32,000 bases of DNA from Megasphaera elsdenii DSM 20460 (GTDB lineage Bacteria; Bacillota; Negativicutes; Veillonellales; Megasphaeraceae). The notes under the pieces are model-generated. The model did not search any database, was not told the origin of the DNA, and saw only the letters and a list, made by a program, of their open reading frames with translations. The translations under genes and the position numbers were made by a program. The stretch is from assembly GCF_003010495.1 (NCBI RefSeq), contig NZ_CP027570.1:540001-572000 (forward strand). The letters are read 5' to 3'. Within the stretch, counting starts at the first letter, position 1. Each line of letters opens with the position of its first letter. Shown here piece by piece: positions 4,021 through 25,812 of the stretch.

Positions 4021-5328
4021 ATGGCATTAAAAGAATTTACGTTCAATATTGGTGAAAATACACAGTCCGTCATGCTCCCGGAAGAACACATCGTCGGCGT
4101 CATGGAAGGCAAACACGTCCCGGCTGTCGATGTCAAACAGGCGACGATCGACTGCATGCGTCATCCGATCGGCAGCGCCCCGTTGCAGGAAAAAGTCCAG
4201 AAGGGCGATAAAGTCTGCCTCGTCGTCGCTGACGTCACCCGTACGTGGAACCATTCAAATCAATTCCTCATCTACATCATCGACGAATTGAACCTGGCCG
4301 GCATCCCTGATGACGACATCTGCATTGTCTTCGCTCAGGGTTCGCACCGCGCCCAGACGCCGGAAGAAGACGTCCGCGTCTGCGGTGAAGAAGTCATCCG
4401 CCGCATCAAAACCTATCAGCATGACTGCATGGACCCTACCCTCGTCGACTGCGGCACGACCAAGCTCGGCACGCCGTTGAAACTCAACAAACACGTTGTC
4501 GACGCCGACAAAGTCATCATCGTCGATGGCATTACGACCCATCTCTTCGCCGGTTACGGCGGCGGCCGCAAACTCATCCTGCCCGGCGTTTCCGGTTTCG
4601 AAACGATCCAGCGCAACCACTGCCACGCTCTGGCTGACGAATTTGGTCACGGCATCAACCCCAAGACGCGGGCCCTCAAGATTGACGACAACCCGCTCAA
4701 CGACGACATGGTCGAAGCCTGCAGCAAGATCAATCCGTGCTTCCTCGTCCACTCCGTCATCAACGGCGACGGCGAAATCTGCCGCATGGTCGGCGGTGAC
4801 TGGTACGACGCATGGCGGGCTGGCACCGAAGCCGTCCTCGACATCCAGCGCGTCCCGATGAAAGAAAAAGCAGACGTCGTCATCGCCTGCGCCGGCGGCT
4901 ATCCCAGCGACGTCAGCCTCTACCAGGGCTGCAAATGCTATGACCCGGCTGAAATGGCTGTCAAAGACGGCGGAGTCATCATCGCCATCATGGAAGCCCG
5001 TGACATCAAAGAACCGGCTATCTACATGGACAGCTTCAAATACGATACGATGGAAGAAATGGAAACGGCCCTGCGGGCACACTTCACCATCCCCTTCTTC
5101 GTCGCCTTCAACCTCTTCTGCCTGACCCATAAAGACACGGTCATCCTGGTCACGCTGCCGCGCAACTTCGACGACATCCGCCGCACCGGCCAGATTCCGG
5201 TCGCCACCGTCCAGGAAGCTTGGGACCTGGCTCAGCAAAAACTGAAAGAACAGGGCAAAGATAAAGATTACACCATCAACATCATGCCCCATGCCACCAA
5301 AGTCATGCCGATTTTGCAGGAAAAATAA
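4021..5328 (+). CDS. larA: Nickel-pincer-cofactor-dependent 2-hydroxyacid (lactate) racemase family protein, LarA homolog
   Basis: 435 aa. Motifs AQGSH(109)R, TTH(174)LFAGYGGGRK(184) and QRNH(200) match the catalytic His pair, the cofactor-tethering Lys and the Ni-ligand His of LarA as I remember them. Confidence 0.85.
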   Translation: MALKEFTFNIGENTQSVMLPEEHIVGVMEGKHVPAVDVKQATIDCMRHPIGSAPLQEKVQKGDKVCLVVADVTRTWNHSNQFLIYIIDELNLAGIPDDDICIVFAQGSHRAQTPEEDVRVCGEEVIRRIKTYQHDCMDPTLVDCGTTKLGTPLKLNKHVVDADKVIIVDGITTHLFAGYGGGRKLILPGVSGFETIQRNHCHALADEFGHGINPKTRALKIDDNPLNDDMVEACSKINPCFLVHSVINGDGEICRMVGGDWYDAWRAGTEAVLDIQRVPMKEKADVVIACAGGYPSDVSLYQGCKCYDPAEMAVKDGGVIIAIMEARDIKEPAIYMDSFKYDTMEEMETALRAHFTIPFFVAFNLFCLTHKDTVILVTLPRNFDDIRRTGQIPVATVQEAWDLAQQKLKEQGKDKDYTINIMPHATKVMPILQEK

Positions 5329-5340
5329 CGAAGTTATTTT

Positions 5341-5469
5341 TCCCGTAGGGGACGCCCAGAGGGCGTCCCGCCTGATTCCACAATCCCGTAGGGGACGCCC
5401 AGAGGGCGTCCCGCCTGATTCCATAATCCCGTAGGGGTCGCCCAAAGGGCGACCCGCTTGATTCCATAA
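5341..5469 (+). repeat. Three tandem direct copies of a 43-bp GTAG-headed REP-like hairpin element; a degenerate partial 4th copy runs to about 5481
   Basis: Unit TCCCGTAGGGGACGCCCAGAGGGCGTCCCGCCTGATTCCA(C/T)AA at 5341, 5384 and 5427. Each has a 9-bp stem GGGACGCCC/GGGCGTCCC. Copy 3 carries the paired change GGGTCGCCC/GGGCGACCC. Confidence 0.9.
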
Positions 5470-5476
5470 TCCCGCA

Positions 5477-5525
5477 GGGGGCTGTCGCACGAAGGCTTTT
5501 ACCATCATGAAAGGCCCCTTTCTCT
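5477..5525 (+). repeat. Degenerate terminator-like hairpin element, paralogous to 7782-7829
   Basis: Shares the core TGTCGCACGAAGGCTT(T/C)T(A/G)CCATCATG (2 differences in 27 nt) and a GGCCC..TTTCT tail with the element at 7782-7829. Confidence 0.7.
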
Positions 5526-5530
5526 CGAAA

Positions 5531-5551
5531 GTTTGTAGTACGGAGTTTGTA
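5531..5551 (+). repeat. Short 7-nt-period array GTTTGTA GTACGGA GTTTGTA
   Basis: Direct reading. It occupies the same position relative to the preceding hairpin as the array at 7835. Confidence 0.5.
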
Positions 5552-5555
5552 AAAG

Positions 5556-5588
5556 AAGGCGCTGTCTTCATGCGACAGCGCCTTTTTT
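5556..5588 (+). terminator. Rho-independent terminator (TGTC core family)
   Basis: AAGGCGCTGTC-TTCATGC-GACAGCGCCTTTTTT. Confidence 0.85.
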
Positions 5589-5657
5589 ATTATTCCCAAA
5601 GGCTATACTTATCCATTCCTTGATGCATAAGTGACATAATATATTTTCGTATATCTC

Positions 5658-5686
5658 ATGACAAACGTAAAATCCTATGCTATAAT
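5658..5686 (+). promoter_or_regulatory. Candidate promoter for the cupin gene
   Basis: -35 ATGACA (5658-5663), 17-nt spacer, -10 TATAAT (5681-5686). Confidence 0.5.
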
Positions 5687-7773: not shown

Positions 7774-7829
7774 TAAAAAAAGGGGTTGTCGCACGAAGGC
7801 TTCTGCCATCATGCGAGGGCCCTTTTTCT
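7774..7829 (+). terminator. Terminator-like hairpin with T-tract (paralog of 5477-5525)
   Basis: A8-GGGGTTGTCGCA-(18-nt loop containing GGC-TTCT-GCC)-TGCGAGGGCCC-TTTTT, starting 6 nt after the transporter stop. Confidence 0.55.
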
Positions 7830-7834
7830 TAAAT

Positions 7835-7933
7835 GTTTGAGGTTTGATGTATGATGTATGATGTTTGAGGCGATGGCTTTTAAATTTTGTCCCCTCCACA
7901 TCAAACTTTCAACTTCAAACTTCAAACTCAAAA
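7835..7933. repeat. Two inverted 7-nt-period arrays around an AT-rich TTTTAAATTTT core
   Basis: Left arm: GTTTGAG GTTTGAT GTATGAT GTATGAT GTTTGAG. The right arm read on the other strand is GTTTGAA GTTTGAA GTTGAAA GTTTGAT. The arms are imperfectly complementary. Confidence 0.85.
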
Positions 7934-7964
7934 AGGGCTTGTCGTCATGCGACAAGCCCTTTTT
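7930..7964 (-). terminator. Rho-independent terminator for the trp operon (bidirectional shape, TGTCG core family)
   Basis: AAAAAGGGCTTGTCG-TCATG-CGACAAGCCCTTTTT, 1 nt from the trpA stop codon. Confidence 0.85.
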
Positions 7965-12379: not shown

Positions 12380-12946
12380 TTATAATGCAAGGAAATTTTC
12401 TACCATCATCGGCCCTTGAGGCGTCAAAATCGATTCGGGATGGAACTGCAGGCCGTAGACGGGATACTGCTTATGGCCGACGGCCATGATTTCACCATCT
12501 TCCGTATGGGCCAGGACTTCCAGTTCATCCGGCAAGGTATCCGGGTCGAGGGCCAGGGAATGATAGCGGCCGACGTCGACCTGTTCCGGCAGTCCCTTGA
12601 ACAAGGGGCTGTCCGTCTTCAGCGTGGCGACGGATTGTTTGCCGTGCATGAGCTGCTTGGCATAGGTAATGGTACCGCCGTAGACTTCGCAGATGGCCTG
12701 ATGACCTAAGCAGACGCCCAGGATGGGGACCTTGCCGGCGAAGTAGCTGATGGCCTGTTCGCAGACACCGGCATCGGCCGGACGGCCCGGTCCGGGAGAA
12801 ATGATGAGGTGATCCGGACGCATGGCTTCGATGGCTTCGACGGTCTTTTCATCGTTGCGGATGACCGTGATATCCGGGTCGAACTGACCGAGGAGCTGGT
12901 AGAGATTATAAGAAAAACTATCGTAATTATCAATGAGCACTATCAT
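12380..12946 (-). CDS. trpG: Anthranilate synthase component II (glutamine amidotransferase, TrpG/PabA type)
   Basis: 188 aa with the GVCLGHQ nucleophile elbow and the HPES motif. The start overlaps the trpE stop (ATGA). Confidence 0.9.
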
Positions 12947-14412
12947 TTGTCGATCCCTCCATTAGCCTGCTGCAATGCAATGACGACAGCTTTGGCCTTG
13001 TTCAGACATTCCTGATGTTCCTGTTCGGGGATACTGTCGGCGACGATGCCCGCGCCGGAGCAGGCGTAGACGTGATTTCCTTTCTTATAGGCCAGGCGGA
13101 TGCCGATGCAGCAGTCCATATTACCCGTAAAGTCGATGTATCCGATGGCGCCGCCATAGACGCCGCGTTTATGGCCTTCCAGTTCGTCGATGATTTCGCA
13201 GGCCCGGATCTTCGGTGCCCCTGACAGGGTGCCGGCCGGCAGGACCGATGCAATGGCGTCGATAGCCGTCTTATCCTTGCGGATCGTGCTGTGAACAGTC
13301 GAACCGATATGCATGATATGAGAGAAACGCAGGACGTCGAGATAGCGTTCGACGTGAACGCTGCCAAATTCACTGATGCGGCCCAAATCGTTGCGGCCCA
13401 AGTCGACGAGCATGTTGTGTTCGGCCAGTTCCTTCGTATTGTGCAGGAGTTCATCTTCCAAGGCCTGGTCTTCTTCCGGCGTCTTGCCCCGCGGCCGCGA
13501 TCCCGCCAGGGGGAATGTGAACAGGTCGCCGTTTTCCAGGCGGGTCAGCGTTTCCGGTGAAGAGCCGGCGAGCTCGATATCATCGCCGGAGAAGAAGAAC
13601 ATATACGGCGATGGATTGAGGGTCCGCAGGACGCGGTACGTATCGAGGAGGCTCCCCTCGGCTTCAGCGCTCAGGCGGTTGGCCAGGACGACCTGGAAAA
13701 TATCGCCTTCGCGGATGTAGGTCTTGCCCTTTTCGACCATCTGGCAATATTCTTCTTTATTGAACAAAGGCTTGAAATCACTTTTGAGCTTCAACGGGAT
13801 GTCCGGGGCCTTCTTGCCTTCCCGGATAAGGCTTTCCATGCGTTCCATTTCCAGGAGAGCCCGGTTATAATTTTCCTCGGCCGAGTCGAGGCGGACGTTG
13901 ACGATAAGGTAAATCTGCTGTTTCAGGTTATCGAAGACGATGACCTTATCGAAGAGCATGAGGTCGAAATCGTTGAAGCCATCATCATCGACGGCATTGA
14001 GTTTCAGCGACGGTTCGGCGTATTTGATGAAATCGTAGGCAAAATACCCGACCAGTCCGCCTGTAAAGGGAGGCAGGTCCGAAAGGCGCGGCGCCTTATT
14101 GTCGGCCAGTATCTGGGAAATAAGCTGTTCCGGATGGTCCGTATGGATCTGGACTTCAGCGCCGGTCTTGATGTGGACCGTACCGTCCTTGCAGTACAGA
14201 CCCATCTGCGGATCATAGCCGATAAAGGTATAGCGGCCCCAGCGCTGGGAATCTTCCATGCTTTCCAGCAAATAGCAGTGAGAGCTGATGTTCTTGACGA
14301 TGCGCAATACTTCGATAGGCGTGCGGACGTCGGCATACATGCTGCGGCAGATGGGCACGACCTTGTATTCACCTTGATATGCTTTTACCTGTTCCAGACT
14401 GAGCGTTTCCAT
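12943..14412 (-). CDS. trpE: Anthranilate synthase component I
   Basis: 489 aa. The chorismate-binding domain carries SPYMFF and GGAIGY motifs. SD AGGAGG precedes the start. Confidence 0.95.
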   Translation of the reverse strand: METLSLEQVKAYQGEYKVVPICRSMYADVRTPIEVLRIVKNISSHCYLLESMEDSQRWGRYTFIGYDPQMGLYCKDGTVHIKTGAEVQIHTDHPEQLISQILADNKAPRLSDLPPFTGGLVGYFAYDFIKYAEPSLKLNAVDDDGFNDFDLMLFDKVIVFDNLKQQIYLIVNVRLDSAEENYNRALLEMERMESLIREGKKAPDIPLKLKSDFKPLFNKEEYCQMVEKGKTYIREGDIFQVVLANRLSAEAEGSLLDTYRVLRTLNPSPYMFFFSGDDIELAGSSPETLTRLENGDLFTFPLAGSRPRGKTPEEDQALEDELLHNTKELAEHNMLVDLGRNDLGRISEFGSVHVERYLDVLRFSHIMHIGSTVHSTIRKDKTAIDAIASVLPAGTLSGAPKIRACEIIDELEGHKRGVYGGAIGYIDFTGNMDCCIGIRLAYKKGNHVYACSGAGIVADSIPEQEHQECLNKAKAVVIALQQANGGIDK

Positions 14413-14423
14413 ATGAACCTCCT

Positions 14424-14712
14424 AAAAAAAGAATCCGTCCACGACAATGTTACTTGTCAAGGACGGATTAAGTTCCGCGGTGCCACCTTGTTTTAGGGGT
14501 TGAACCCTACTCTCGACGGAATACCAACATATTCCCGGCAACTGACGTATGCCAACACGTCGCAGAATACTCGGCCTTCCGGCTTTTGACTGCGCCCTCA
14601 GCGGTCCATTTAACGAGCTGCGTCGGCCGGCTCTCAGCATCCCGGCTCTCTGTACGTGCACGTCATCGTTTTTACTTCCGCCTCAATGGTTTCATGGACG
14701 ATGTTCGGTTGA
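14424..14712 (-). promoter_or_regulatory. T-box riboswitch leader, tryptophan (UGG) specifier, with intrinsic terminator
   Basis: Read on the minus strand. Stem I motifs are AGAGAGCCGG...GCUGAGAGCCGG. The specifier-like AAAUGGA has UGG at 14608-14606. The conserved T-box sequence AACAAGGUGGCACCGCGG is at 14492-14475. The terminator AAUCCGUCC...GGACGGAUU plus U7 is at 14469-14424. Confidence 0.85.
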
Positions 14713-14719
14713 TGGTTGT

Positions 14720-14748
14720 ATGATACACCGCATTATGTAACCTGTCAA
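14720..14748 (-). promoter_or_regulatory. Promoter of the trp operon leader
   Basis: On the minus strand: -35 TTGACA (14748-14743), 17-nt spacer, -10 TATCAT (14725-14720). Confidence 0.6.
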
Positions 14749-14788
14749 GGCCATTTTTGTCCACCATTTAAAGACAATCGTTTTACTG

Positions 14789-14824
14789 AAAAAAAAAGCT
14801 TGTCGCGTACACGACAAGCTTTTT
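14789..14824 (-). terminator. Rho-independent terminator for the permease gene (TGTCG core family)
   Basis: A9-GCTTGTCG-CGTACA-CGACAAGC-TTTT. The A9 run supplies the U-tract for the minus-strand transcript. Confidence 0.85.
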
Positions 14825-14825
14825 A

Positions 14826-14917
14826 GTGGCTAGTGGCTAGTGGCTAGGGGTTAGTGGCTCACATGGCGTTACGAACCATGAGCCACCAACTGCTAATCCC
14901 TAGCGGCTAACTGCTAG
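14826..14917. repeat. Two inverted 7-nt-period arrays (GTGGCTA type), TAG-N4 periodic on both strands
   Basis: Left arm: GTGGCTA GTGGCTA GTGGCTA GGGGTTA GTGGCTC. The right arm read on the minus strand is cTAGcagtTAGccgcTAGggatTAGcagt. The arms are imperfectly complementary around CATGG..CCATG. Confidence 0.85.
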
Positions 14918-16814: not shown

Positions 16815-17744
16815 ATGACTTTACAGCAACTTCGTTATATCCTAGAGTTATCAAGGCACAATTCCATTTCGGCTGCAGCCCATGCCCTGAACATCTCCCA
16901 GCCCAGCCTGAGCACGGCTATCAAAGATTTGGAAAAAGAGTTTTCCCTGACCCTGGTCGAACGGAACCGCCACGGCATCACCTTCACGCCAGCAGGACTG
17001 GAATTTCTCCATTACGCCGGCCATATCCTGTCCCATGCCGAAGCCATGCACGACCATTTCCAGGCAGAAAAAAAACAGGACCTGCCTCAGGTCCTGTCCA
17101 TTTCATCCCAACACTATCCTTTCGCCGATGAAGCCTTCATCCATGCTCTGCAGCACGTCCCGCCGAACGCGGCCTGCACGTTCACCCTGCGCGAAGGCCG
17201 GACGTCGCAAGTCATCCATGACGTCGTCACCCGCGAAAGCCAGCTGGGCATCCTCTTCTTATCCCACATGAACGCCCGTTTCCTGAAGGACTTGTTCCAC
17301 AAGAATAAGCTGGAATTTACGCCTCTCTGCGCCTTCACGCCCTGTCTCTATGTCCGCAGCGGCCATCCCCTGGCAGAATTTTCTCACGTCGTTCCCGGCC
17401 AATTCAGCAGCTATCCTTGCGTCCGCTTCGAACAAGGTCACGACAAATCGCAGTTTTCCGAAGAACTGCTCCTGCCCAACCGGGCCAGCCGCCAGTGCAT
17501 CTACGTCACCGATCGGTCGACGCTGTTCAGCATCATCCGGGCCACCGACGCCTACACCATCGGTACGGGTCACGCAGCCCCATCCATCATCGGCCGCCAC
17601 CTCGCAGTCATCCCCATCGAAAATCCCCTGGACACGATGACCGTAGGCTGGATCAAGATGGCAGGAGAACCCCTGTCCGAAGAAGCTTCCCACTACATCA
17701 CCATCCTGACGGACTTGTTGAGAGGACGGGAGAATAAGGAATAG
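16815..17744 (+). CDS. LysR-family transcriptional regulator
   Basis: The N-terminal wHTH MTLQQLRYILELSRHNSISAAAHALNISQPSLSTAIKDLE is followed by a substrate-binding-type domain. 309 aa. Confidence 0.9.
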   Translation: MTLQQLRYILELSRHNSISAAAHALNISQPSLSTAIKDLEKEFSLTLVERNRHGITFTPAGLEFLHYAGHILSHAEAMHDHFQAEKKQDLPQVLSISSQHYPFADEAFIHALQHVPPNAACTFTLREGRTSQVIHDVVTRESQLGILFLSHMNARFLKDLFHKNKLEFTPLCAFTPCLYVRSGHPLAEFSHVVPGQFSSYPCVRFEQGHDKSQFSEELLLPNRASRQCIYVTDRSTLFSIIRATDAYTIGTGHAAPSIIGRHLAVIPIENPLDTMTVGWIKMAGEPLSEEASHYITILTDLLRGRENKE

Positions 17745-17799
17745 TGGTTCGTGGTTCGTGGCTCGTGGTTCGTGGCTCGTGGCTCGTGGCTCGTGGCTC
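17744..17799 (+). repeat. Eight tandem heptamers GTGG(T/C)TC
   Basis: GTGGTTC x2, GTGGCTC, GTGGTTC, GTGGCTC x4. The array starts on the G of the LysR TAG stop and continues in phase into GTAATCC GTAGGGG. Confidence 0.95.
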
Positions 17800-17803
17800 G
17801 TAA

Positions 17804-17840
17804 TCCGTAGGGGCCGTCCCAAAGGGCGGCCCGCTTAATT
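17804..17840 (+). repeat. GTAG-headed REP-like hairpin (single copy)
   Basis: TCCGTAGGGGCCGTCCCAAAGGGCGGCCCGCTTAATT. The stem GGGCCG(T)CCC/GGGCGGCCC has the 4th pair changed to C-G relative to the copies at 5341. Confidence 0.85.
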
Positions 17841-17850
17841 ACTTGCAAAC

Positions 17851-17886
17851 AAAAAGGCGCTGTCGCGATGCGACAGCGCCTTTTTT
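17851..17886. terminator. Bidirectional rho-independent terminator shared by the convergent LysR and nifJ genes (TGTCGC core family)
   Basis: AAAAAGGCGCTGTCGC-GAT-GCGACAGCGCCTTTTTT. Confidence 0.9.
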
Positions 17887-21659: not shown

Positions 21660-21696
21660 AAAAAAAGGCGCTGTCTGCAAGAGACAACGCCTTTTT
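21660..21696 (-). terminator. Rho-independent terminator (TGTC core family)
   Basis: A7-GGCGCTGTCT-GCAA-GAGACAACGCC-TTTTT (one mismatch in the stem). Confidence 0.8.
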
Positions 21697-21698
21697 AA

Positions 21699-21770
21699 GT
21701 TTGAAGTTAAAAGTTTGATGTTTGATGTAATCCGTTTTTAAATTTAAAAATCGTCGCTTCAAACATCGAG
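21699..21770. repeat. 7-nt-period array plus TTTAAATTTAAA core
   Basis: GTTTGAA GTTAAAA GTTTGAT GTTTGAT GTAATCC GTTTTTA, then AAATTTAAAAA, then a partial inverted arm (CTTCAAACATC). Confidence 0.75.
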
Positions 21771-25664: not shown

Positions 25665-25679
25665 AGGACCTCCTTTTAA

Positions 25680-25717
25680 GGAATCAGGCGGGCCGCCCTC
25701 TGGGACGGCCCCTACGG
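25680..25717 (-). repeat. GTAG-headed REP-like hairpin (minus orientation)
   Basis: On the minus strand: CCGTAGGGGCCGTCCCAGAGGGCGGCCCGCCTGATTCC. It uses the same stem variant as the copy at 17804 and ends 15 nt before the MBL start codon. Confidence 0.85.
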
Positions 25718-25737
25718 ATAAAGGCCTTTAAATTTAA

Positions 25738-25777
25738 AACCATTTGCTAACCGCTAACCACTAGCTGCTAACCACTT
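25738..25777 (-). repeat. 7-nt-period array, TAG-N4 type
   Basis: On the minus strand: aagtggtTAGcagcTAGtggtTAGcggtTAGcaaatgg, followed by TTTTAAATTTAAA. Confidence 0.8.
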
Positions 25778-25811
25778 AAAAGGGCTTGTCGCACATGCGA
25801 CAAGCCCTTTT
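25778..25811 (-). terminator. Rho-independent terminator after pth (TGTCGC core family)
   Basis: AAAAGGGCTTGTCGC-ACAT-GCGACAAGCCCTTTT, 1 nt from the pth stop. Confidence 0.85.
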
Positions 25812-25812
25812 C

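Follow-up and report, generated by a model that had tools for sequence, protein, structure and literature searches.

A 32-kb stretch of DNA from Megasphaera elsdenii DSM 20460, called the window below, carries a larA-like gene for a nickel-dependent lactate racemase and, behind its stop codon, a tandem array of short GC-rich hairpins headed by GTAG, as in repetitive extragenic palindromic (REP) elements. These hairpins, their relatives elsewhere in Megasphaera and the REP-associated tyrosine transposase (RAYT) that may act on them are the subject of this report. The LarA, LysR-type and Pth proteins encoded in the window occur unchanged in M. elsdenii genomes, and its intergenic sequences equal those of record HE576794.1 (assembly GCA_000283495.2). 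The array is followed by a 58-nt repeat module, a terminator-like hairpin and a promoter-like site, in this order (Table 1). Tandem Repeats Finder describes the array as 3.3 copies with a period of 43, 93% matches and a score of 238. Its units have the layout CC-GTAG-GGGACGCCC-AGA-GGGCGTCCC-GC, after which comes the linker CTGATTCCAYAAT; GTAG begins at 5345, 5388 and 5431, and the arms form a 9-bp GC stem with a 3-nt loop. All three units lie on the plus strand, head to tail, so that the inverted doublet of bacterial interspersed mosaic elements (BIMEs) and of REP doublets forming hairpins (REPINs) is not found here. The preliminary description of this DNA had recognised three head-to-tail 43-bp units and a decayed fourth; the three units stand, and the supposed fourth (CCGCAGGGGG, ~5471-5481) is the linker running into the 58-nt module. 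The frame GTAGGGG-N3-CCC-N3-GGG-N3-CCC occurs three times in the window against 0.00 expected from shuffles, and folding as single-stranded DNA gives about -11.8 kcal/mol for each array unit and -10 to -12 kcal/mol for the 9-bp stems overall.

With the larA stop codon before it and the terminator-like hairpin after it, the array probably belongs, as judged from its position, to the transcribed 3' untranslated region (UTR) of larA. The terminator-like hairpin is apparent from folding and by eye; pairing between the T-run and the A-run upstream of it kept the terminator scan from making a call at 5558-5588. Several other identities of the array were considered. A CRISPR array was ruled out, since the 14-nt linkers between the units are themselves repeated and the array therefore has no unique spacers. 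An intrinsic terminator was ruled out for the window REPs, no unit having a T-run behind it, and an attC site was likewise rejected. Rfam gave no match at the gathering threshold anywhere in the window.

A covariance model built from Megasphaera copies and run over the whole window with filters off gives exactly five significant copies and nothing else above noise: the three array units (from 5345, 5388 and 5431) and one copy at 17807-17834, all on the plus strand, and one at 25688-25715 on the minus strand. A repeat-search match at 1772-1811 (63% identity, intragenic) has no covariance-model score and is due to chance. The two dispersed copies carry an additional T in the left arm (GGGCCG-T-CCC vs GGGCGGCCC), which makes their palindromes imperfect: they have a bulge or a G.T pair, and the loop is 4 nt. 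As had been proposed, three different base pairs occupy the fourth stem position: units 1 and 2 have A-T, unit 3 has T-A, and both dispersed copies have C-G. The proposed placement before a terminator, and so probably in a 3' UTR, holds for the array and for the copy at 17805; the copy at 25688 lies after the pth terminator and just before the next ribosome-binding site, and hence outside a 3' UTR, in a 5' leader or promoter region. The spacer at 25665-25775, which holds heptads, a TTTAAATTTAAA palindrome, the REP and the ribosome-binding site, has an almost exact counterpart in Megasphaera sp. WILCCON 0056 (L053; L-numbers are locus labels of compared sequences), where the REP itself is identical, and the coding DNA flanking this REP is ~87% identical between M. 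elsdenii and that species. The near-identity of this leader of a metallo-beta-lactamase-fold gene suggests either constraint on the leader or recent exchange.

Conservation of pairing was assessed in 38 distinct 27-mers from Megasphaera-like loci, in which the inner pairs were unconstrained by the search patterns. Paired cells amount to 89.8% vs 68.9% after shuffling, and cells changed on both sides to 64 vs 17.6, with compensatory changes at six of the nine stem pairs. The covariation score is 0.498 against 0.114 for shuffled sequences (0 of 500 shuffles as high), and falls to 0.10 or less when the partner column is shifted by 1-3 positions. At stem pair 4 the 27-mers have C-G (21), A-U (8), U-A (4) and U-G (3). 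GTAG does not vary among the 5 window copies or among the 38 distinct 27-mers from Megasphaera. The REP hairpins keep structure, not sequence, and the compensatory changes first noticed in the window hold in a larger sample not chosen for pairing.

The hairpins form a family that extends far beyond the window. A scan of one genome per species with CCGTAGGGG-N3-4-CCC-N3-GGG-N3-CCCGC, arm middles and loop being unconstrained, gave at least 120 matches; those listed include six Megasphaera assemblies, several gut Oscillospiraceae, a termite-gut Bacillota genome and many Chloroflexota, Acidobacteriota and Desulfobacterota. Two Megasphaera assemblies hold at least 12 and at least 8 strict-pattern loci, and the frame was also found on gut metagenome contigs among the matches listed in a scan with a Megasphaera-specific pattern. 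Recurrence outside the window, which the REP interpretation had predicted, is thus observed both in Megasphaera assemblies and in gut metagenomes. The Megasphaera hairpins have GTAGGGG...CCCGC in common and differ in the stem interior (CCGTCCC/GGGCGG, ACGCCC/GGGCGT, CTCGC/GCGAG, CGCCC/GGGGCG); perfect (27-nt) and T-bulged (28-nt) hairpins occur side by side in one genome, and copies are arranged as singletons, head-to-tail arrays or inverted pairs ~75 nt apart. Among the loci with the general frame CCGTAGGGG...CCCGC (L001-L120) the commonest form is CCGTAGGGGCGACCCGGTGGGTCGCCCGC, and the hosts comprise Anaerolineae, Acidobacteriota, Desulfuromonadales, Poribacteria, Latescibacterota and others; in seven of these loci a gene of the RAYT clade described below adjoins the frame.

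Location was scored for 340 hairpins in ~1.05 Mb of Megasphaera-like loci, a copy being counted as inside an open reading frame (ORF) when a stop-to-stop ORF spanning at least 200 aa extended >150 nt beyond it on each side. By this crude caller, which over-calls across GC-rich repeats (e.g., an antisense ORF at ~4255-5586 opposite larA), 43 copies (12.6%) lie deep in long ORFs vs 58% of random positions, ~87% being outside. Copies lie mostly outside genes, and 27 of the 43 intra-ORF copies belong to the linker of one gene (MutL). When the count is restricted to copies >1 kb from the copy that brought a locus in, there are 57 units in 43 clusters per 589.5 kb, which extrapolates to ~240 units and ~180 loci per 2.47-Mb genome; the window density is of a similar order (5 units and 3 loci in 32 kb). 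By this extrapolation the M. elsdenii family would comprise roughly 100-300 copies. By similarly crude gene calls, the 91 non-redundant spacers that hold REPs are co-directional (57), convergent (23) or divergent (11), and co-directional spacers hold 57 units oriented with the genes and 31 oriented against them. Orientation with the upstream gene, stated in the preliminary description for all three window loci, is therefore a bias and not a rule.

An HUH...Y pattern and a RayT profile gave no Y1 transposase for the window or for the 23 Megasphaera loci first taken from the genome scan. The profile search located RayT-like genes adjoining a REP match in seven loci from other phyla. One of these genes comes from the termite-gut Bacillota genome; with its protein as query, the homologues belong to Pfam Y1_Tnp and often bear the label 'REP element-mobilizing transposase RayT'. 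Among the matches listed, two metagenome loci with the Megasphaera-specific REP pattern hold a RayT-like gene. A profile of these homologues matched the protein of L189, a 149-aa HUH/Y1 protein 97% identical to 'transposase [Megasphaera elsdenii]'; one member of the same 90% cluster occurs on 450 contigs and is named RayT by IMG. Its best NCBIfam model is REP_Tyr_transpos (73.8 bits vs 27.7 bits for transpos_IS200). The three Megasphaera RAYT clusters score 73.8, 66.5 and 64.2 bits against NF047646 (80 bits), so that the NCBI name is just 'transposase'.

The sole PDB sequence match of the protein is 4ER8, the Escherichia coli TnpA-REP, which is also the best Foldseek match of its AlphaFold model (predicted local distance difference test, pLDDT, 88), with a template modelling (TM) score of 0.67 and a root mean square deviation (rmsd) of 3.4, compared with TM ~0.55 and rmsd 7-12 for the IS608 and ISDra2 transposases. 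The HUH motif IMPNH76-V-H78 and the tyrosine motif Y135-I-E-N-N-P are invariant among 84 homologues and align to the matching regions of 4ER8. By sequence and predicted structure the M. elsdenii RAYT is closer to TnpA-REP than to IS200/IS605 transposases.

The gene order amino-acid permease-RAYT-queC-M13 peptidase is found in 10 of 11 loci from different assemblies. In 10 of the 11 strain loci RAYT has REPs on both sides, one on the minus strand at -127 and one on the plus strand 51 nt past the stop codon; L260 is without the -127 copy. The GTAG ends of both flanking REPs point toward the gene, and the upstream one, GTAGGGGACGCCCAAAGGGCGTCCCGC, is one loop base away from the window array unit. 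A Y1-transposase gene between inverted REPs of the same frame, which the REP interpretation led one to expect, is therefore present in M. elsdenii. RAYT is single-copy in a conserved chromosomal context and is not itself mobile. Megasphaera has at least three RAYT lineages, the two others being 87% and ~49% identical to that of M. elsdenii; they may pair with different REP stem types. The RAYT copy in L201 (6895-7353) is seemingly interrupted near its 3' end.

Among strains, the array and the singletons behave differently. In ten M. elsdenii assemblies with identical LarA protein, the 43-bp units behind larA number 1, 1, 1, 1, 2, 2, 2, 3, 4 and 4. Some array units are uncompensated hybrids, with the left arm of one type and the right arm of another, or contain single mismatches, a pattern consistent with slippage or unequal recombination among units. 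Both singleton REPs are invariant, and the heptad arrays adjoining them have 3-11 and 1-4 units among strains. In the larA-cupin spacer of L127 (CP027569.1) a single REP hairpin is joined directly to TTTTTG; ~210 nt up to the normal terminator T-run are missing (the other units, the 58-nt module and the terminator stem), and the REP therefore occupies the place of the terminator hairpin.

Taken together, the array is read as a head-to-tail cluster of GTAG REPs that belongs to a dispersed M. elsdenii family and is the cognate substrate of a single-copy, domesticated HUH/Y1 RAYT (probability about 0.85). The earlier identification of the hairpins as REP elements tied to RAYT is supported by the family, the covariation, the extragenic bias and the REP-flanked RAYT gene, from which we infer mobilisation. 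The enzyme-substrate relation between RAYT and the REPs is suggested by co-location and homology. RAYT catalysis on these REPs would proceed by a single-strand mechanism, and mobility and an effect at the RNA level would follow by analogy.

Several observations weigh against this interpretation. Copy number per genome comes from extrapolation and not from a count. Uncompensated mismatches occur in some array units of other strains, and some units are hybrids. No REP insertion or excision polymorphism was seen, the two singletons being fixed and identical in 10/10 strains each. The array is head-to-tail, whereas the inverted REPIN/BIME doublet is the supposed mobile unit. The RAYT score of 73.8 bits is below the NCBI equivalog cut-off of 80 (NF047646). 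Finally, RAYT is shown for the species M. elsdenii and not for strain DSM 20460 itself; assembly GCA_900142305.1 has both RAYT and the pth-spacer REP, and one 2,551,837-bp contig has RAYT plus a LysR-type protein identical to that of the window.

By analogy with E. coli TnpA-REP, RAYT would recognise the folded hairpin and its 5' GTAG on single-stranded DNA, and would cut and rejoin DNA beside the hairpin. Propagation would be limited to variants that still fold within the GTAGGGG...CCCGC frame, so that the stem interior would covary and the head and tail stay fixed. At an occupied site, slippage or unequal recombination would alter the tandem unit number, giving the 1-4 units seen among strains. 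Once transcribed, the larA hairpins could shield the mRNA from 3' exonucleases or modulate termination. E. coli REPs protect mRNA from 3' exonucleases and modulate termination.

A role in RNA might also be the primary one, the hairpins being chiefly host-selected RNA elements (3'-UTR stabilisers, attenuators or auxiliary terminators) and the RAYT link incidental. Two of the three window loci are on the sense strand between stop codon and terminator, RNA folding of the array region gives z = -5.8 relative to shuffles, and the sense-strand bias (57 vs 31 units) points the same way, as do the L127 hairpin that is joined to the T-run in place of the normal terminator and the metallo-beta-lactamase-fold gene leader, which with its REP is better conserved between two species than the flanking coding sequence. 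However, about one third of the units in co-directional spacers are antisense to genes, and copies are present in divergent spacers and in-frame within the mutL linker. Moreover, the invariant single-stranded GTAG head and the GC tail are without obvious RNA role and match TnpA-REP recognition (PMC8266576), and the RAYT gene is flanked by the same sequences. As a full account of the hairpins, this explanation is improbable; an exapted RNA role added to REP identity is quite possible.

The two other alternatives fare worse. Double-stranded DNA sites for a nucleoid or topology protein, retained for chromosome organisation, are suggested by the regular spacing of the array and by analogy with E. 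coli BIMEs, for whose sites bound by integration host factor (IHF) and gyrase such a role has been proposed (PMC8266576). The stem interior is free to vary provided that pairing holds, which fits a folded single strand and not a duplex motif, and makes this reading very improbable. Least probable of all is that replication slippage built a minisatellite at this one site, unconnected with any family or dedicated enzyme. The 1 to 4 units among strains with identical LarA, the hybrid units and the neighbouring heptad arrays, which act as microsatellites, would all agree with slippage; but the core also occurs as a singleton at two other loci in the window, flanks RAYT on either side and turns up at many unlinked loci in Megasphaera. 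Slippage accounts for copy-number change and not for dispersal, and the minisatellite is contradicted by the dispersed copies.

Table 1. Features of the window and of compared loci (coordinates are those of the window unless an L-number is given).
Feature	Coordinates	Strand	Evidence or remark
larA-like nickel-dependent lactate racemase gene	4021-5328	+	array begins 14 nt past stop codon
Complete head-to-tail array, 43-bp period, CTGATTCCAYAAT linkers included	5341-5480	+	Tandem Repeats Finder; strain comparison
REP unit 1: CC, GTAG 5345-5348, stem 5349-5357/5361-5369, loop AGA, GC	5343-5371	+	fold -11.8 kcal/mol; covariance model 41.5 bits
REP unit 2, same sequence as unit 1	5386-5414	+	pattern match, covariance model
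REP unit 3: stem pair 4 T-A in place of A-T, loop AAA	5429-5457	+	pattern match, fold, covariance model
58-nt repeat module, distinct from REP	5478-5535; again 7782-7839	+	repeat search; covariance model
Terminator-like hairpin GGCGCTGTC-N7-GACAGCGCC, then T6	5558-5588	+	predicted folding and inspection by eye
Promoter-like site of next gene	5658-5686	+	promoter scan
GTGGYTC heptad array touching REP head	17744-17801	+	3 to 11 heptads among strains
Singleton REP (CCGTAGGGGCCGTCCCAAAGGGCGGCCCGC), between lysR-type gene stop plus heptad array and terminator 17851-17886	17805-17834	+	10/10 strains identical
Singleton REP past pth terminator, ~15 nt upstream of ribosome-binding site of metallo-beta-lactamase-fold gene	25688-25717	-	10/10 strains identical
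Heptad arrays	17744-17801, 25746-25773, 14824-14859, 1540-1597, 7833-7868, 7901-7932, 21700-21730; L265-L284		
Terminator family	1600-1632, 5553-5590, 7925-7964, 14797-14832, 17851-17886, 21663-21697, 25780-25812		
mutL genes with in-frame REPs	L085 3245-5329(+), L021 83-2092(-); also L092, L142, L144, L194, L223, L239, L245		
RAYT genes with in-frame REP peptides	L026 587-1294, L079 1136-2083, L101 919-1908, L023 1067-405(-), L060 1297-1959		

REPs read in-frame were seen in two kinds of genes (Table 1). The mutL genes of several Megasphaera species read in-frame through 3-5 GTAG REPs (peptide ...VGAVPEGGPQ...), which are located in the disordered linker between the DNA_mis_repair and MutL_C domains; their spacings of 45, 90, 93 or 186 nt are all multiples of 3, and the copy number depends on the species. 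RAYT genes of other phyla and of the termite-gut Bacillota genome contain in-frame REP-coded peptides (VGATRRVAPT-like), mostly directly after the HUH strand, and the stop codon of the L026 RAYT is the TAG of a GTAG.

The intergenic spacers of M. elsdenii are mosaics of several further small repeat families. Tandem arrays of heptads (GTGGYTC, GGTTAGC, TAGTGGC, GTTTGAT and others) occur in many spacers and often touch the REP head, and the heptads of L050 and L029 (CCGCAGG, CGCAGTT) are 1-2 mismatches from the REP head CCGTAGG. The 58-nt module (GGGGYTGTCGCACGAAGGCTTYTRCCATCATG...) has 83% identity between the two window spacers and is present too in another Megasphaera species (L053 3505-3565). 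A small AT palindrome, GSYTTTAAATTTAAARSC, is another mosaic module (window 7876-7887, 21738-21750 and 25727-25740; L121 spacer). The window terminators are themselves a bidirectional sequence family, consisting of an A-run, (G)GCKYTGTCGC, a loop, GCGACARMGC(C) and a T-run; the core TGTCG-N3-9-CGACA occurs five times in the window vs 0.22 expected, and the family is reminiscent of the uptake-sequence pairs in Neisseria terminators. The long leader at 14413-14790 (-), upstream of the gene 12943-14412 (-), has a strong hairpin and a T-run directly before the ribosome-binding site and looks like an attenuator or riboswitch, with no Rfam match at the gathering threshold.

GTAG REPs are well known from Proteobacteria; in E. 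coli, TnpA-REP binds the hairpin and GTAG on single-stranded DNA (PMC8266576, PMC3479197), and the arrangement of a RAYT gene with its REPs, the REPtron, is known for E. coli and others (PMC8266576). The Megasphaera elements share with proteobacterial GTAG REPs (E. coli REP/BIME with TnpA-REP/YafM; the Pseudomonas and Stenotrophomonas families) the 5' GTAG, a short GC-rich hairpin with compensatory stems, mostly extragenic copies (by extrapolation ~10^2 in Megasphaera) as singletons, tandem clusters and inverted dimers, and occasional in-frame copies. As in proteobacterial REPtrons, the HUH/Y1 gene is single-copy, with fixed synteny and inverted cognate REP flanks; in contrast to these, the host is a Negativicute (Bacillota) and the RAYT is short (149 aa) and just under the NCBI family cut-off. 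Whereas BIMEs alternate REP and inverted REP, the window cluster is all head-to-tail with a 43-bp period. Perfect and bulged hairpin styles have been assigned to two different RAYT groups (PMC8266576), whereas Megasphaera has both the 27-nt perfect and the 28-nt T-bulged hairpins in one genome.

Two further systems are close. Like the REPINs of Pseudomonas fluorescens (PMC3116915), Megasphaera has inverted pairs ~75 nt apart with a conserved spacer (L097 2174(-), 2249(+)) and a vertically inherited, single-copy RAYT; unlike REPINs, the window element is no inverted doublet, and the Megasphaera pairs have GTAG inward and a spacer with a terminator-like hairpin. The HUH/Y1 fold (TM ~0.55) and sub-terminal hairpins on single-stranded DNA are common to IS200/IS605 elements (IS608, ISDra2), but the Megasphaera transposase does not travel between the hairpins as a mobile unit, tnpB is absent, the gene keeps to one conserved chromosomal context and the IS200 model gives 27.7 bits. 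The finding is therefore an extension of the known proteobacterial REP/RAYT system to a gut Firmicute, not a new kind of element.

A survey of GTAG and CGTC repeats (Di Nocera et al., 2013; PMC3733652) gives Proteobacteria, Cyanobacteria, Chloroflexi and the PVC (Planctomycetes-Verrucomicrobia-Chlamydiae) superphylum for GTAG elements, and leaves Firmicutes unmentioned. The system is nevertheless less unfamiliar than the earlier remark on Firmicutes implied, since RAYT group 1 has been reported from Clostridia (PMC5581495) and IMG already uses the label RayT for the M. elsdenii protein. Within the literature collection searched, no paper connects Megasphaera with REPs or RAYTs. It is possible, at somewhat less than even odds, that this is the first described Negativicute REPtron, and that the cross-phylum frame and RAYT clade, the in-frame MutL REPs and the in-frame RAYT REPs are perhaps unreported. 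The REP frame stands beside the same RAYT clade in Chloroflexota, Acidobacteriota, Desulfobacterota and other Bacillota, and such recurrence of the CCGTAGGGG head and CCCGC tail across phyla would imply either a very old lineage or cross-phylum transfer.

REP/RAYT work has so far been almost entirely proteobacterial. M. elsdenii, an anaerobe of gut and rumen that can be grown in culture, is of interest as a probiotic and to industry. For its genomics, REP arrays and the adjacent heptads would be usable as strain-typing markers, and in Megasphaera genomes they give rise to spurious ORFs and to breaks in assembly. For the REP/RAYT family, M. elsdenii would provide a second, distant model for the generality of RAYT-REP recognition rules, with a compact 149-aa enzyme, perfect and bulged hairpins, and natural strains with 1-4 units, in which the dosage of REPs in the 3' UTR could be tested directly against expression of the lactate racemase gene.

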